A stretch of 64,000 bases of DNA from Candidatus Omnitrophota bacterium (GCA_023818645.1 JAMWCJ010000002.1:9454-73453); one strand, 5' to 3'; positions 41,571-45,140 are shown, numbered from the stretch's first letter. Translations and numbers: made by a program. The notes: generated from the sequence alone by a model not told the origin.

Positions 41571-44500
41571 TCACTCTTTTTCTACTAATTTTTTTTCTTT
41601 TATGAGATAAAATTTGCTATCACCCGCAGGAATAATAACTTCAAAATTCATTCCACCAAAAACAGGTGTATTAGGAGGAGAACAAATTTTTGTTTTTATC
41701 TCTTTTTCTGTTGGATTATGAATTTCTATGAATGGAGGTTTACTTTTATCCTGGCCGTCTACTACAACTGTTATTTTTAAATTTTTATCCTGACTAACAA
41801 AAATATTTCCCACCCAGATTTTGTTCTCTTTTTCAATGGGTTCCTGAAAATACGCAGTATCATTATAAACAGAAACAAATCTAAACCATGGTCTAACTGT
41901 TGAATATATTGCAGCACAGCCATTATCTTCAATTCCTTTGACTCTTATAGGTAAATCTATTATCATATTTTGCGGTCCTAAAGTAAATAATGCTTCATTA
42001 TTTTCTGCTTCTGCAGTGAAAAAGAAAGTTCCGTCCAAAAACCTACCTTTTTCTATTTTGATAGGATATCCTTCTTTCCCGCCTTCTAAATTAAATATTT
42101 TAACTATATTTTCAAGTTCATCGATTCCCGGTCTTTTTTCTGCAAATATGCCATAAAGAAATGAATATTTTAAAACATCCCCCTTTTTTAATTTCTTACC
42201 ATTTTCTCCAAGTCCTATATATATTCTTCCTTCTTTAGATAATAATCCTGCATAACTCCATTCAGTTTGGTCTTCTGATTTTGGAATAAATACTGCTGTA
42301 TAGCCTAAAACAGTAGGTTGCCAGGAGATATAACCGCCTTCTTTAATTTTACCGTTAACATTTTCTTTAGTGAATTTATTATTTAATTTTACAATTCTTG
42401 TTTTATAAGGTTCTTTAACGATTAAAGTATCTCCCCATCCTTTTTCAAAATCAACAGGAGTAGATAAAAATAAGAGAGGGATTGGAACATTACCTTCTAA
42501 TTCTATATCTTTTTTTATTCTTATTTCACCTTCATGCCATACTAATGACCCTTCGTATTTTTCAATTGACTCATAATATCTTCTATAATTCCATTGGACA
42601 AAAAAATCTACTCTATCTGCAGGTGCTATCATTGTATGGCTTCTTTCAAAAAATTCAAGTTCTCCCTGGTTTAATGGTAAACTTGCCATCACTGCGGGTG
42701 GTCTATTTGGTCTATCATGCATTGGTACAAGATGACTTATTAGCATTGAGACAATCTGTAGGTTATAACTGGCAAGTTTAACATCCATAAGTTTTCCTGC
42801 AAATTTATCTTTTGTATACTCGTTATAAACTGATGGATATTCCCCAATACCTTTCACTCTGATAAATTCCAAAGGTAAATCCCTTGGGTTTGGAACTCCA
42901 AGAGATGGGTCTGCTGTATCCCAACCTGTAAGAGCAAATTTATTGCCATTTCTAAAACCTTTACCTAAAGGAAGCATTTCGTTTCTATCAGGGTGCCAGT
43001 AAAAACCAAGAGGCCCAAGTATATTTAAATTATCACTACATCTAAACAATCCTTGCTTATAACAATAAATAAGTATAGTATGTGAAATGGCTTTCTTGTT
43101 TTCATTATCAATTACTTCAAGAGTCAAAAAATGCTGCTTATCATGGACAATTTCAAATTCTTTTGATAAAAGTTTTTCTCCTTTGCCGATAAAATTTCTT
43201 ATTATTCCATAATTTGCATCCCTCACTTTGACTTCTTTTATTCCTTTATTAGAAAAGACCTCAAATTTTAATCTCACTCTTTGGGCACCTCTTGTAAACT
43301 CATAGTTGTTTTCCATTTGGTCATTTATAGATTCCCACTGAAGTATAATTGGACCCTGACTTACATGTTGTTGTCCTTCTTTTGCAAACCAGTAAGGACT
43401 AGCTCTTGCATTTAAAGATTTTTTTACACTCTCTAAATTTTTGAATATTGTTACACATTTTTCCGCTGCAACTTTTAAATCTTTTGGTGATTTTATTTTT
43501 GTATATGAAATCACGGAGTTCCATCTTAAATCCCTCAATCCAAAAAGAAATTCATTATAGTTATCTGCAATTAATTTATCTTTATCATATGCATAGGGGA
43601 TATACATAAAAAAATACCATAAATTATGAGGGTATCCACCAACTTCTCTTAATTTTTTGTAGTCAATAATTCCTGTTTGAGGGAAACCACAATAATAAAA
43701 ATATTGCCCATAATGATTTATTTTCTCACCATCCCATTGAATATACTCATAATTTTTAGAAATAAATTTTTCAGGTGGATATTTTATTCTTTCCCCTAAC
43801 ATTATCCATCTTATCCCCACTCCATCTGTAAACTCTATACCAGGACAGGCATAGAAATTCGTGTCACTTATCTCCTGACATTCTTTTTTTAATGATTCAA
43901 ATTCTTCAGGAGTTAAAAATTCAAGTGGTTCGGTGAATACAATAAATGATAGACCTAACTTCTTTGCTTCTTCTACATAATCTTTAACTTTTCCTTCTCC
44001 ATCAGTGTATGCAGTATGAACTCCTACAATTCCTTTTATTACTTTATCGGACATTTTACCTATTTCAACTTCCCATCCATTTTCAGGCCTTACATATGAT
44101 TTTGAAAAACTATATTTATCCCAAGATATTTCATTCGGAAAAGTTATTCTTTTGTAAGGTTCTATTTTATAAGTCGCAATTTTCCCTGCCTTTTTTGCAT
44201 TTTCCCCAAGATATCTATAAGAATTCATCTGTAACTGCCAACTATCACTTTTTCTACCTGATAATGGGTCTCCTTTTTCTTCAACTATACTTTCCCATAA
44301 AGGATTTAAGTAATTCGCTCCTGTAAAAAGAGGAGAAATTGGGTAGGATACAATTCTGCCTTTTCCAAATTTCCTTGTAGCAAATATTGGTGGTTCTTCT
44401 TTATATGTCCCTTCTGCTTCAAGATTGATCACATTTGGGTTTCCAGAAATACCACTTTTATATGACTTTGCTTCTTTTTCTCCTTTTATCAATATCTCCC

Positions 44501-45140
44501 ATTCAGAGGAATATTTTAATGCAACAACGCCTGGGCCAGGATAATAGTCATGTAATGGTAAATATAAACATTTAATTCCCTCTGTTAAAATATGTGGTTT
44601 TATATTTTGTGTGTAAAAAAATTTAGCCTGATTCAAAGTCCTACCTTCATATTCTCTTGTTTTATCATATACTCCCTCATGTAAAATTTCTATCCCAAAG
44701 ATTTTTAAAACTTGATTCCAGTATTCTTCATCTTTTTCATTTGGATACCTTACACTTCTCACTTGAATAAACAACCCTCCACCTTCTTCAACAAATCTTT
44801 TTAACGCATTACTAACTCTTTTAGCATATTCTCTTTCTGATTCTCCAAATTTTGTTCCAATACCTTCATCTGTTGTTGTTAAATGTATTAAATGAAACCT
44901 TGAAATTTTTTCATAAATTTGCTCTTCTGTTAACTTATACCTGGGGAGAAAAACATCATTAAATAGGATAGGTTCTATATTATTTTTCTGATATAAAGGA
45001 ATTGTTCTATGGTATTTCCTAAATTCAACATTATACTTATCTCCATCAACTTGAGGTATTCCAAGATAAATTTTGTCATTTTGAGTTAGAACATTTTTTG
45101 TTAAATTAAATAATAAAAATAATAAAAATATCTTTTTCAT
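41571..45140 (-). CDS. Giant secreted protein, unknown family (GATase1-like N-terminal module; PHP-like HxH…DG motif)
   Basis: 1189 aa with a signal peptide (MKKIFLLFLLFNLTKNVLTQN). The N-terminal module carries …RFVEEGGGLFIQV…. The central segment VGVHTAYTDGEGKVKDYVEEAKKLGLSFIVFTEP resembles the PHP-domain metal-binding start. It is clearly paralogous to 52767-56753 (shared blocks FIVF…E(F/Y)LTPE(E/K)FE.LK..C…SD). Confidence 0.5.
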   Translation of the reverse strand: MKKIFLLFLLFNLTKNVLTQNDKIYLGIPQVDGDKYNVEFRKYHRTIPLYQKNNIEPILFNDVFLPRYKLTEEQIYEKISRFHLIHLTTTDEGIGTKFGESEREYAKRVSNALKRFVEEGGGLFIQVRSVRYPNEKDEEYWNQVLKIFGIEILHEGVYDKTREYEGRTLNQAKFFYTQNIKPHILTEGIKCLYLPLHDYYPGPGVVALKYSSEWEILIKGEKEAKSYKSGISGNPNVINLEAEGTYKEEPPIFATRKFGKGRIVSYPISPLFTGANYLNPLWESIVEEKGDPLSGRKSDSWQLQMNSYRYLGENAKKAGKIATYKIEPYKRITFPNEISWDKYSFSKSYVRPENGWEVEIGKMSDKVIKGIVGVHTAYTDGEGKVKDYVEEAKKLGLSFIVFTEPLEFLTPEEFESLKKECQEISDTNFYACPGIEFTDGVGIRWIMLGERIKYPPEKFISKNYEYIQWDGEKINHYGQYFYYCGFPQTGIIDYKKLREVGGYPHNLWYFFMYIPYAYDKDKLIADNYNEFLFGLRDLRWNSVISYTKIKSPKDLKVAAEKCVTIFKNLESVKKSLNARASPYWFAKEGQQHVSQGPIILQWESINDQMENNYEFTRGAQRVRLKFEVFSNKGIKEVKVRDANYGIIRNFIGKGEKLLSKEFEIVHDKQHFLTLEVIDNENKKAISHTILIYCYKQGLFRCSDNLNILGPLGFYWHPDRNEMLPLGKGFRNGNKFALTGWDTADPSLGVPNPRDLPLEFIRVKGIGEYPSVYNEYTKDKFAGKLMDVKLASYNLQIVSMLISHLVPMHDRPNRPPAVMASLPLNQGELEFFERSHTMIAPADRVDFFVQWNYRRYYESIEKYEGSLVWHEGEIRIKKDIELEGNVPIPLLFLSTPVDFEKGWGDTLIVKEPYKTRIVKLNNKFTKENVNGKIKEGGYISWQPTVLGYTAVFIPKSEDQTEWSYAGLLSKEGRIYIGLGENGKKLKKGDVLKYSFLYGIFAEKRPGIDELENIVKIFNLEGGKEGYPIKIEKGRFLDGTFFFTAEAENNEALFTLGPQNMIIDLPIRVKGIEDNGCAAIYSTVRPWFRFVSVYNDTAYFQEPIEKENKIWVGNIFVSQDKNLKITVVVDGQDKSKPPFIEIHNPTEKEIKTKICSPPNTPVFGGMNFEVIIPAGDSKFYLIKEKKLVEKE

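Follow-up and report, generated by a model that had tools for sequence, protein, structure and literature searches.

Two giant genes in a glycan-utilisation regulon

The window, by which we mean the whole 64,000-nucleotide stretch of Candidatus Omnitrophota DNA that was analysed, carries two very large genes, and all coordinates written here with two dots lie on its minus strand. G1 (copy 1; 41571..45140) is an open reading frame for an exported multidomain protein of 1189 aa, for which we have 86 homologs, about 1150-1200 aa long when complete, and an AF2 model. G2 (copy 2; 52767..56732) encodes an exported paralog of 1321 aa. The mechanical reading frame of G2 runs on to a TTG at 56753 (52767-56753, minus strand, 1328 aa), but the ATG at 56732 is the more likely start, and the NCBI protein P0087, also 1321 aa, is 100% identical to G2 read from that ATG. 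An earlier note on this DNA had proposed that the two genes are paralogs, and they are indeed homologous: BLASTP aligns them with an E-value of 9e-41 and 25% identity across 718 aa, and a comparison of their family profiles covers 1059 columns, with Prob 100 and E 1.3e-76. Judged by sequence, this homology extends along the whole length and is far beyond chance; the motifs that the note had quoted all occur as written.

It had also suggested that one paralog is catalytic and the other not, and the distribution of homologs tells against a local duplicate pair of this kind. Each subfamily has its own orthologs of about 45-50% identity in several phyla, the hosts being Omnitrophota, Planctomycetota, Lentisphaeria/Victivallales, Verrucomicrobia, Kiritimatiellae, and Armatimonadota. 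G1 and G2 are not a recent pair but belong to two old, long-diverged subfamilies of one large exported superfamily. Its proteins are about 1100-1300 aa long and form at least 1140 clusters at 50% identity (representatives at E<=1e-3); the 58 genome loci found in GTDB are all in MAGs, with at most 4 copies per genome, and some remote members carry a fused CBM4_9, beta-helix, or FAD_oxidored domain. The superfamily is uncharacterised, as had been claimed: it comes from uncultured bacteria, no member has a characterised function, and the named members seen are all called "hypothetical" or "CehA/McbA … domain-containing".

G1 and G2 are part of a co-regulated regulon for glycan utilisation, made up of three tandem transcription units. 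At the head of each unit stands a pseudopilin-like DUF1559 gene, and one type of promoter/leader cassette is common to all three. The DUF1559/N_methyl genes were recognised by Pfam; one lies directly upstream of G2 (56772..57563; SBP_bac_10 and N_methyl both above cut-off), another heads the unit that ends with G1 (51303..52073), and a third, just downstream of G1, heads the next unit (40556..41323). The cassette copies (c, 57564..57803; b, 52074..52251; a, 41324..41502) consist of TTGACA...AATAAT, an inverted repeat CATCCGG-N5-CCGGATG, and an invariant 35-nt leader with AGGAGG, and the window has 3 occurrences of their 26-nt core where 0 would be expected. Directly upstream of G1 is a sugar-type regulator with Pfam GntR-HTH and Peripla_BP_3 domains (45249..46319), an ortholog of which (49% identity) heads the equivalent cluster in another Omnitrophica locus, L007. 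A DUF1559 gene stands directly upstream in 9 of the 58 loci (P~4e-6), and the pairing recurs upstream of G1-family genes elsewhere.

A carbohydrate context is evident from the neighbours, which include a bona fide GH38 in a separate gene (29314-31752), a GH42-like giant, CBM4_9, Laminin_G_3/3-keto-disaccharide hydrolase and GATase1_like proteins, a GH66-C-like protein, GFO/IDH/MocA, an FGGY kinase, and the GntR/PBP regulator. Gene order is conserved in other Omnitrophica (L009, L007), and homolog neighbourhoods hold GH20, GH116, GDSL esterases, and FGE-sulfatase. Outside Omnitrophica the context is variable, and one locus (L004) is without carbohydrate genes.

Predicted domain architecture

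The G1 model is confident (pLDDT 90.7, pTM 0.87) and, read together with Foldseek, predicts a signal peptide, a GATase1-like domain, and a PHP barrel with Ig-like sandwich. A conserved C-x-D-x-x-N loop comes next, then a supersandwich of the galactose-mutarotase-like kind, and finally further sandwiches at the C-terminus. The signal peptide (aa 1-20, MKKIFLLFLLFNLTKNVLTQ; 45081..45140) is a hydrophobic N-terminus modelled as a low-pLDDT helix at 2-18. By a hydropathy heuristic, such N-termini are present in 39 of 45 copy-1 homologs and 43 of 46 copy-2 homologs, in keeping with the earlier view that the proteins are secreted.

The first folded unit in G1 is an alpha/beta domain (aa ~24-320; 44181..45071), and its counterpart in G2 (ORF aa ~195-477; 55323..56171) aligns to it. 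Both copies contain EGGG, with the elbow at G120-G121-G122 in G1 and GGG279-281 in G2, and the description of a GGG-containing GATase1-like module finds support in several comparisons. Foldseek matches the G1 domain to STM3548/STM1381 (2gk3, E 1.6e-5, TMt 0.58; 3soz, TMt 0.50) and to the GH42 trimerisation domain (domain B; multiple GH42 matches, E ~1e-4), and a profile/HMM alignment to 2gk3 spans the GGG motif. G2 has a weak Pfam ThuA match (E 0.024, 15.3 bits against a threshold of 33.4), and G1 has no Pfam match, above or below threshold, to PF06283, PF07090, or PF08532. The class-I GATase flavodoxin-like fold is thus present in the predicted structure, and the domain is non-catalytic-looking: the elbow is GGG in both families with no Cys nucleophile, and the Cys-His-Glu amidotransferase triad is absent. 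Residues conserved across the superfamily in this domain are E155, T177, W214, R256, and R262 (G1 numbering). In G2, an N-terminal extension of about 165 aa precedes it (56184..56675), which gave no match in a Pfam search and is confined to the closest orthologs, the named ones all Omnitrophica. These orthologs (>=65% identity) are nearly all 1320-1334 aa long; remoter ones (<=59% identity) have about 1160 aa, and their coverage of the query is only 85-87%.

The PHP-fold barrel of G1 (aa ~366-590; 43371..44045) is followed by the Ig-like beta-sandwich (aa ~595-692; 43065..43358), assigned from the CehA/McbA model match and the two-domain match to 3e38, in which R648, R649, Q669, and D678 are conserved superfamily-wide. 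In G2, the PHP-like barrel (ORF aa ~522-756; 54486..55190) was placed by Pfam PHP and column comparison with G1. Next in G1 comes a conserved loop region (aa 694-745, YKQGLFRC701-x-D703-N-L-N706...WHPDRNE...GWD741; 42906..43061) and then an all-beta half (aa ~750-1189; 41574..42893), a supersandwich with terminal sandwiches according to DSSP of the model and Foldseek, which includes an E1139-x-H-N-P-T motif. Foldseek matches to this half, with query regions assigned by inference, are Ams1/GH38 (E 4.8e-7), OpgD/MdoD, and the YidC P1 domain.

The loop might itself be the functional centre. C701, D703, and N706 form the most conserved polar motif of the superfamily (89-94% over 242 sequences, both subfamilies), and the order of the loop depends on the C-terminal half being in the model, since its pLDDT falls below 50 once that half is omitted. 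Together with the OpgD/MdoD matches, these features could indicate a site formed with the supersandwich, as in OpgD/GH186, where catalysis occurs in the beta-supersandwich, or in GH127-type enzymes, which use a Cys nucleophile. However, the TM-scores of those matches are low (about 0.13-0.31, rmsd >20 A), and C701 may do no more than shape a turn in the structure or take part in a disulfide, for instance with C421, which is conserved to the same degree. We regard a loop-centred function as improbable.

The PHP-fold barrel and its ligand positions

The PHP resemblance proposed for copy 1 holds at the level of fold. When a sub-model of G1 residues 362-748 was compared by Foldseek, all 13 of the 13 PDB matches at E<=1e-3 were PHP-family structures, the top match being 3e38 (E 2.6e-10, ~388 columns over both domains). 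The barrel has pLDDT >95 in the AF2 sub-model, and TM-scores to PHP structures are modest, 0.42-0.57 (2anu TMt 0.57; 7ug9 TMt 0.53-0.57). The model supports a PHP fold, predicted as a distorted (beta/alpha)7 barrel and then a CehA/McbA-type beta-sandwich. Sequence scores for G1 fall short of the curated thresholds: Pfam PHP, whose gathering score is 26.4, gives E 4.7e-5 and 24.2 bits with the whole protein and E 1.1e-5 and 26.3 bits with the segment, and NCBIfam NF038032 gives 30 bits against a cut-off of 80, its model positions 209-309 corresponding to aa 587-688. G2 reaches 15.2 bits with Pfam PHP (E 0.029). The statement that the proteins match no recognised family has to be qualified in view of the sub-threshold PHP and CehA/McbA matches and the NCBI label of some orthologs, "CehA/McbA family metallohydrolase domain-containing protein".

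The supposed preservation of the PHP start does not survive inspection of the residues, and copy 1 has no intact PHP metal site. The motifs read VGVHTAYTDGEG...LGLSFIVFTEPLEFLTPEEFESLKKECQEISD in copy 1 and IGAKTNYSTGKS...FGFDFIVFADDFEYLTPEKFEELKEDCKKYSD in copy 2. In an alignment of 244 sequences (242 homologs and both window proteins), the first His of HxH is Gly (G373) in 244/244, so that copy 1 has GxH and no subset of homologs retains HxH. The "TDH" His position (P405 in G1) is Pro in 79 of 81 G1-family and Asp in 45 of 54 G2-family sequences. H375 is kept in 66 of 81 G1-family sequences and is Arg, Cys, Gln, or Val in the other 15; D380 is Gly or Ser in 14 of 81. E436, taken from its strand position as the bridging Glu of "GxE" (G434-I-E436), is present in 74 of 81, and at the positions expected by strand mapping for the beta4 and beta5 His the G1 family appears to have Glu/Asp and Asp. 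The degenerate ligand set of G1 reads G373-x-H375, D380, P405, E407, E436, D439, E450, D493, and of the roughly 8-9 canonical PHP ligands at most three, H375, D380, and E436, would appear to survive in copy 1. In G2, H375 is replaced by Lys, D380 by Thr, P405 by Asp, and E436 by Ser, which confirms the reported loss of the His and Asp from copy 2; across the G2 family the H375 position is Lys, Arg, or Gln and the E436 position Ser or Thr.

These observations bear on the proposal that copy 1 works as a metal-dependent phosphoesterase of the PHP type, with phosphorylated glycans or the like as substrates, and that copy 2 is a duplicate that has lost activity and only binds. Beyond the fold and the weak PHP and CehA/McbA matches, it can draw on an alignment of the PHP N-terminal motif x-H-[ST]-x-Y-[ST]-D-G...A-[KR]-x-x-G-[LF]-x-x-[IV]-x-x-T-[DE] to the PHP domain of PolX, in which H375 and D380 align with H344 and D349 of the T. 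thermophilus enzyme. PolX likewise lacks the first His (Q342), E436 is where the bridging Glu is expected, and H375, D380, and E436 are all substituted in copy 2. Against it, P405 aligns to the PolX V-T-D-(H374), a His replaced by a near-invariant Pro, the beta4/beta5 histidines, judged by strand mapping, likewise appear to be replaced, H375 and D380 vary among orthologs, the scores lie under both curated cut-offs, and the copies are ancient subfamilies with separate orthologs. The "binding-only" label for copy 2 is unproven, and the G2 family barrel retains invariant polar residues of its own (N596, E690, Q626). Neither protein is a canonical PHP phosphoesterase, and we consider this proposal very improbable.

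A different possibility is that G1 and G2 are non-catalytic glycan-binding or scaffold platforms in the periplasm or on the surface, maybe tethered to or exported with their DUF1559 pseudopilin partner, that present substrate to hydrolases (GH38, GH42-like, GH66-like), with the barrel a structural relic. A purely structural role has precedents among degenerate PHP domains, such as that of E. coli Pol III alpha. The superfamily as a whole has lost the canonical PHP ligands, and barrel polar residues are not conserved superfamily-wide; the universal ones are spread over the GATase1-like domain, the sandwich, and the C-x-D-x-x-N loop, and any functional site shared by the superfamily may therefore lie outside the barrel. 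Moreover, the bulk of the protein consists of sandwich and supersandwich domains typical of carbohydrate-binding accessories, the recurrent pseudopilin-like pairing fits an anchoring or export partnership, and recognisable GH genes occur in the same units. Yet some 18 barrel residues, polar or aromatic, are 87-100% conserved within the G1 family against an overall identity of about 45%; E407, R444, and W469 are each kept in 80/81 sequences and D493 in 71/81. In the model's secondary structure these residues sit where the barrel strands reach their C-terminal ends, or just beyond, a pattern that suits an active site better than a relic, and their G2 equivalents are not conserved. Proteins of this size, at up to four copies per genome, would also be costly for binding alone. 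We hold the scaffold explanation to be doubtful, albeit with some real chance of being correct.

Proposed function and likeness to known systems

The best reading, to which we would give an even chance, is that G1 and G2 are glycan-processing proteins built on a re-tooled PHP barrel within a glycan regulon, a function we infer from fold, conservation, and context. After Sec export, the proteins would act on a glycan in the periplasm or at the cell surface, with the beta-domains binding glycan and the GATase1-like domain serving assembly, as in GH42. In the G1 family, the His-rich trinuclear metal site of the barrel would have given way to a carboxylate/Arg/Trp pocket on the catalytic face (H375, D380, E407, E436, D439, R444, W445, E450, W469, D470, D493, W508, R539), whose conserved carboxylates are E407, E436, D439, E450, D470, and D493. 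Such a pocket is most plausibly sugar-binding, possibly with one hard cation (Ca/Mg/Mn), and may cleave or modify the sugar; the differently lined G2 barrel could have another specificity or no catalysis. A bolder and rather unlikely version is that G1-family proteins are the first carbohydrate-active enzymes on a PHP-fold barrel, cleaving a glycan in the carboxylate/Arg/Trp pocket, possibly Ca/Mg/Mn-assisted, each with a dedicated upstream DUF1559 pseudopilin as partner, exporter, or anchor. If true, this would also be the first function assigned to DUF1559, a very large family in PVC, Omnitrophota, and related bacteria.

Among glycoside hydrolases, searches of Pfam, NCBIfam, and PDB sequences with single sequences and the family profile gave no significant match to a GH, PL, or CE catalytic domain, including that of GH42. 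GH42 nevertheless combines a barrel, a GATase-like domain, and a beta-sandwich in one polypeptide as G1 does, and the GGG-elbow class-I GATase-like domain is common to GH42, GATase1_like, ThuA, STM3548, and G1. The order differs, with the TIM barrel first in GH42 and the GATase-like domain first in G1, as does the barrel, a GH-A (beta/alpha)8 type with two catalytic Glu rather than a PHP-type (beta/alpha)7. GH38 enzymes have a seven-stranded alpha/beta barrel and a large C-terminal all-beta region including a galactose-mutarotase-like supersandwich, an arrangement that G1 resembles; Ams1 (7vqo) matches over 632 columns, but with a TM-score of 0.14, an rmsd of 25 A, and no sequence similarity, which makes this a local, domain-level resemblance only.

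The PHP superfamily (PF02811: PolX/Pol III PHP, histidinol phosphatase, YcdX, RNase AM, TM0559) has the barrel fold in common with G1, which differs in missing most of the metal ligands. E. coli Pol III alpha, whose PHP domain is inactive, offers the nearest precedent for such loss, and we know of no PHP enzyme with this architecture or glycan-locus context. A close likeness in domain arrangement is to the CehA/McbA type (NF038032), exemplified by 3e38, the crystal structure of BVU_3505 of Bacteroides vulgatus: a PHP barrel and then an Ig-like beta-sandwich, the same two-domain unit as in G1, at 11-13% sequence identity. In G1, however, Gly373 and Pro405 stand in place of the HxH and TDH histidines, and the module is embedded in an exported protein of 1200 aa, between a GATase1-like domain and about 500 aa of beta-domains.

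Two giant exported proteins and their superfamily

The two giant open reading frames singled out in the earlier note both exist on the minus strand of the window, which has a G+C content of ~28%, and every motif quoted for them was found in their sequences. G1 (41571-45140) encodes 1189 aa and G2 (52767-56753) 1328 aa, although the start of G2 is most likely the ATG at 56732, giving 1321 aa as in the NCBI model P0087. Their best database matches are Candidatus Omnitrophica MAG proteins, and two of these, P0001 and P0087, are 100% identical. A 105-aa plus-strand ORF within G1 (44009-44326) is regarded as spurious. 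Signal-peptide-like hydrophobic N-termini, called by a hydropathy heuristic and not by a trained predictor, are present in 39 of 45 G1 homologs and 43 of 46 G2 homologs.

The proposed relatedness of G1 and G2 is borne out by BLASTP (E 9e-41, 25% identity, 718 aa) and by alignment of their ortholog profiles over 1059 columns (Prob 100, E 1.3e-76); homology therefore spans the whole length, beyond the N-terminal two thirds. They do not form a local pair. G1 has full-length orthologs of ~1150-1200 aa (43-49% identity) in Armatimonadota, Verrucomicrobia, Kiritimatiellae, Planctomycetota and Lentisphaeria/Victivallales, and G2 has separate orthologs of ~1160 aa (46-53% identity) in overlapping phyla, which, with only 25% identity between the two, rules out a recent tandem duplication. 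G1 and G2 are two old subfamilies within a large superfamily. The closest G2 orthologs (at least 65% identity) are almost all 1320-1334 aa long, the named ones all from Omnitrophica, and they carry a ~165-aa extra N-terminal extension absent from more distant orthologs. In G2 this extension lies at window positions 56184-56675 (ORF aa ~27-190) and starts NLILNSDFEKDFNGWK; judged by eye from its 'NLILNSDFE..W' start, we suspect that it is CBM-like, and a Pfam scan of it matched no model.

When the G1-family profile was used in an exhaustive HMM search, at least 1140 representatives (clusters at 50% identity) passed E<=1e-3 and 478 passed E<=1e-30, with the N-terminal ~700 residues the best-conserved part. 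Among GTDB species representatives we found 58 loci, all 58 from MAGs, with at most 4 copies per genome. Each source name encountered was 'hypothetical protein' or sometimes 'CehA/McbA family metallohydrolase domain-containing protein', and for distant members always 'hypothetical'; these distant members include fusions to CBM4_9, right-handed beta-helix or FAD_oxidored (PF12831) domains. A homolog search with G1 aa 690-1189 returned same-family fragments only and no new architectures. No Pfam family covers the G1/G2 proteins, and literature on CehA/McbA/PHP, on PHP domains with glycoside hydrolases and on DUF1559 yielded nothing on the family. Single G1-family genes (32-35% identity) also lie on short contigs of an Oscillospiraceae MAG (L058) and a Caulobacterales MAG (L064), bins whose phyla otherwise lack the family; these occurrences reflect either mis-binning or horizontal transfer.

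A glycan cluster with a repeated leader cassette

From ~24.3 kb to 57.6 kb of the window every gene is on the minus strand, and Pfam assignments divide the glycan cluster into three tandem units, each headed by a pseudopilin-like DUF1559/N_methyl gene (40556-41323, 51303-52073 and 56772-57563). Unit c consists of DUF1559c and G2. Unit b comprises DUF1559b, a CBM4_9 protein, a 1266-aa GH42-like giant, a GntR-HTH/Peripla_BP_3 regulator and G1. Unit a runs from DUF1559a through a Laminin_G_3/3-keto-disaccharide-hydrolase protein, a GATase1_like protein (599 aa), a GH66-C-terminus-like protein (801 aa) and a second GATase1_like protein (641 aa) to GH38, a URO-D-like protein, GFO/IDH/MocA, DUF6807 and an FGGY kinase. 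The arrangement is conserved in other Omnitrophica: one locus (L009) has a pseudopilin, a G1 ortholog (71% identity), LamG, GATase1_like, GH66-C-like and GATase1_like genes, and another (L007) has a GntR/PBP ortholog (49% identity), DUF1559, a third-subfamily paralog, a G2 ortholog, GATase1_like and GH66-C-like genes. Outside Omnitrophica the neighbours vary, often including GH20, GH116, GDSL esterases, FGE-sulfatase, GH38, further paralogs and URO-D-like genes; at one such locus no carbohydrate genes were found among the neighbours. We infer that G1 and G2 are exported glycan-processing components.

Several neighbours deserve mention in their own right. The triplet of GATase1_like (~600 aa), GH66-C-like (~800 aa) and GATase1_like (~640 aa) genes, at 31742-37874 in the window, accompanies G1/G2 genes at L007, L009 and L062. 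Its ~800-aa protein matches GH66 in the C-terminal sandwich only, the 801-aa window copy has no PDB sequence match, and none of the three proteins has a recognisable catalytic domain. The 1266-aa protein (46415-50215, minus strand), a third exported giant, has a partial GH42 catalytic-domain match (E 8e-8, aa 612-704) and weak GLMA_2nd and MG2 matches, and BLASTP detected no homology to G1 or G2. PDB searches of the GH66-C-like and GH42-like neighbours were uninformative. An Armatimonadota locus (L002) has a similar CBM4_9 gene and a ~1300-aa giant beside its G1 ortholog.

A GFO/IDH/MocA oxidoreductase, DUF6807, a xylose-isomerase-like TIM-barrel protein and a 3-keto-disaccharide-hydrolase domain, the last within the 874-aa LamG protein, are encoded at 25986-28159, 37876-40500 and 58952-59785, and presumably recall the oxidative '3-keto-glycoside' route of glycan cleavage. 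URO-D-like (PF01208) genes occur in the cluster at 28225-29310 and 57955-58938, with no other haem-synthesis genes near them in the window, and adjoin G1-family genes in Armatimonadota, Victivallaceae and Kiritimatiellae (L001 at 15224-16288, L030, L060 and L067). Directly upstream of the cluster, with only the xylose-isomerase-like gene and a URO-D-like gene in between, are the cell-division genes ddl, ftsQ, ftsA and ftsZ (59758-63764, minus strand).

Each of the three DUF1559 genes is preceded by the same promoter/leader cassette, identified by alignment (41324-41502, 52074-52251 and 57564-57803, minus strand). It comprises a near-consensus promoter (TTGACA-N16-18-TAAAAT or AATAAT), a 7-bp inverted repeat, CATCCGC-N9-GCGGATG in copies a and b and, by compensatory change, CATCCGG-N5-CCGGATG in copy c, and then a 35-nt leader that contains AGGAGG and is invariant among the copies. 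Copies a and b have upstream regions that share ~95% identity across ~230 nt. In the whole window the 26-nt core is present exactly three times, with 0 occurrences expected, which points to co-regulation of the three transcription units, and the repeat could be an operator for the GntR/PBP regulator or an RNA hairpin. Total promoter and terminator counts in the window showed no excess over shuffled sequence, and of these signals only the repeated cassette was treated as meaningful.

The link to DUF1559 extends beyond the window. A same-strand DUF1559-like gene lies directly upstream of the G1-family gene at 9 of the 58 GTDB loci (binomial P ~4e-6, based on ~26 DUF1559 genes in the flanks of the 58 loci), and the same-strand, directly adjoining placement of DUF1559 ahead of superfamily members recurs in Planctomycetota, Verrucomicrobia, Victivallales and Omnitrophica (L017, L018, L023, L030, L036, L042, L050, L052, L054, L009 and L007). 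This recurrence hints at a functional partnership. The main rival to glycan processing is that G1 and G2 alike serve only as binding proteins or scaffolds, catalyse nothing and have pseudopilins as partners.

A PHP-fold barrel with a proposed re-tooled face

The AlphaFold2 model of full-length G1 is confident (pLDDT 90.7, pTM 0.87; 45-sequence alignment), and the domain layout was read from its secondary structure and from Foldseek PDB matches. A signal peptide (residues 1-20, from the model and hydropathy) is followed by a class-I GATase-like alpha/beta domain (~24-320), a linker disordered in the model (~345-365), a PHP-fold barrel (~366-590, Foldseek), an Ig-like sandwich (~595-692, NCBIfam CehA/McbA match and Foldseek), a loop marked by superfamily residue conservation (694-745) and an all-beta half (~750-1189). 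Foldseek matches to Ams1/GH38, OpgD/MdoD and the YidC P1 domain, whose query regions were placed in this half by inference, suggest a galactose-mutarotase-like supersandwich followed by terminal sandwiches. In a second model, of residues 362-748 alone, the barrel and sandwich exceed pLDDT 95 and the 697-748 loop falls below 50; the loop is therefore structurally tied to the C-terminal half.

The GATase-like domain resembles STM3548 (2gk3; E 1.6e-5, TMt 0.58), with an HMM alignment that runs across the GGG motif, as well as STM1381 and the GH42 trimerisation domain. A true glutamine amidotransferase is ruled out, as there is no catalytic Cys; the domain may instead serve assembly. Pfam searches with isolated G1/G2 domains gave non-significant matches only (LBP_M, E 0.084).

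Sequence methods support the PHP fold weakly: Pfam PHP matches G1 at E 4.7e-5 (the segment alone at E 1.1e-5, 26.3 bits against a cut-off of 26.4), and NCBIfam CehA/McbA, whose C-terminal part aligns with the G1 sandwich, at E 3.4e-7 (30 bits against a threshold of 80). The earlier note had let its PHP resemblance stand or fall with structure prediction, and on those terms it is upheld, since all 13 Foldseek matches of the 362-748 sub-model at E<=1e-3 are PHP-family proteins. The top match is 3e38 (BVU_3505, PHP plus sandwich; E 2.6e-10, ~388 columns); others include TM0559 (2anu, TMt 0.57), RNase AM, PsfC and BAD_1165.

Judged by alignment, the canonical PHP metal site is not preserved in either protein; the earlier note had credited G1 with a preserved PHP-like start. 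Residues were counted first in 45 G1 orthologs and then in an alignment of 244 sequences, each 900 aa or longer, made up of G1, G2 and 242 homologs. The first His of HxH is G373, Gly in 244/244 and thus also throughout the G2 family, and the check proposed in the earlier note, for a subset of homologs that retains HxH, finds none. The second is H375 (G1 family His 66/81, Arg 12; G2 family Lys, Arg or Gln), the Asp of 'SDG' is D380 (Asp 67/81; Ser, Thr or Gly), the His of 'TDH' is P405 (Pro 79/81; Asp 45/54), and the bridging Glu of 'GxE' is E436 (Glu 74/81; Ser or Thr). In the profile alignment to Thermus PolX, G373 falls on Q342, H375 on H344 and D380 on D349, and the PolX residue that follows 'VTD' is the His; from strand order, the strand-4 and strand-5 His positions would be E450 and D493. 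A canonical PHP phosphoesterase, one of two lesser rival readings, is disfavoured by these metal-ligand losses.

The G1 family has its own barrel set: E407, D439, R444, W445, E450, W469, D470, D493, E505 (His in the window protein), N506, W508, D537, R539, T547 and R548, each 87-100% conserved at an overall identity of ~45%. In the model most of these lie at or just past the C-terminal ends of the barrel strands, the face that bears the active site in PHP enzymes. For G1 as a glycan-processing protein, this re-tooled face would be where the protein acts, with E436, E450 and D493 possibly holding a hard cation. G2 does not conserve the set and has its own invariant barrel residues (G2 N596, E690 and Q626); it may have another specificity or be non-catalytic.

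Polar residues conserved across the superfamily lie mostly outside the barrel: E155, T177, W214, R256 and R262 in the GATase1-like domain, R648, R649, Q669 and D678 in the sandwich and C701-x-D703-x-x-N706 in the loop, with C421 and D526 in the barrel. The other lesser rival puts the functional centre in the supersandwich together with the C-x-D-x-x-N loop.

Significance and relation to known families

If G1 and G2 are enzymes, they represent a sizeable new family whose members occur several to a genome in Omnitrophota, Armatimonadota, Lentisphaerota, Planctomycetota, Verrucomicrobiota and Kiritimatiellia, phyla known chiefly through metagenomes and with much of their glycan-degrading machinery unannotated. 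They would also show that a PHP barrel can be turned to uses other than His-metal chemistry. If they are binding scaffolds only, the value of the finding is modest and mainly annotational. The recurrent pairing of a DUF1559 pseudopilin with a giant exported protein offers a concrete and testable way into DUF1559, which is very abundant and of uncharacterised function, and the shared leader cassette a means of delimiting a regulon.

No GH or PL family was matched by the G1 or G2 sequence in Pfam, NCBIfam and PDB searches, and when G1, G2, the family profile and the PHP segment of G1 were run against PDB sequences, only noise or marginal matches came back (PolX PHP E 0.09, 2gk3 E 0.12). The closest known entity is the CehA/McbA PHP-plus-sandwich module (3e38), whose fold G1 shares. 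However, G1 and G2 fall short of its curated score thresholds and lack its HxH and TDH features, and we therefore do not file them as CehA/McbA family members. They are divergent relatives within the PHP fold superfamily only, and together constitute a new, uncharacterised architecture and family assembled from known folds.
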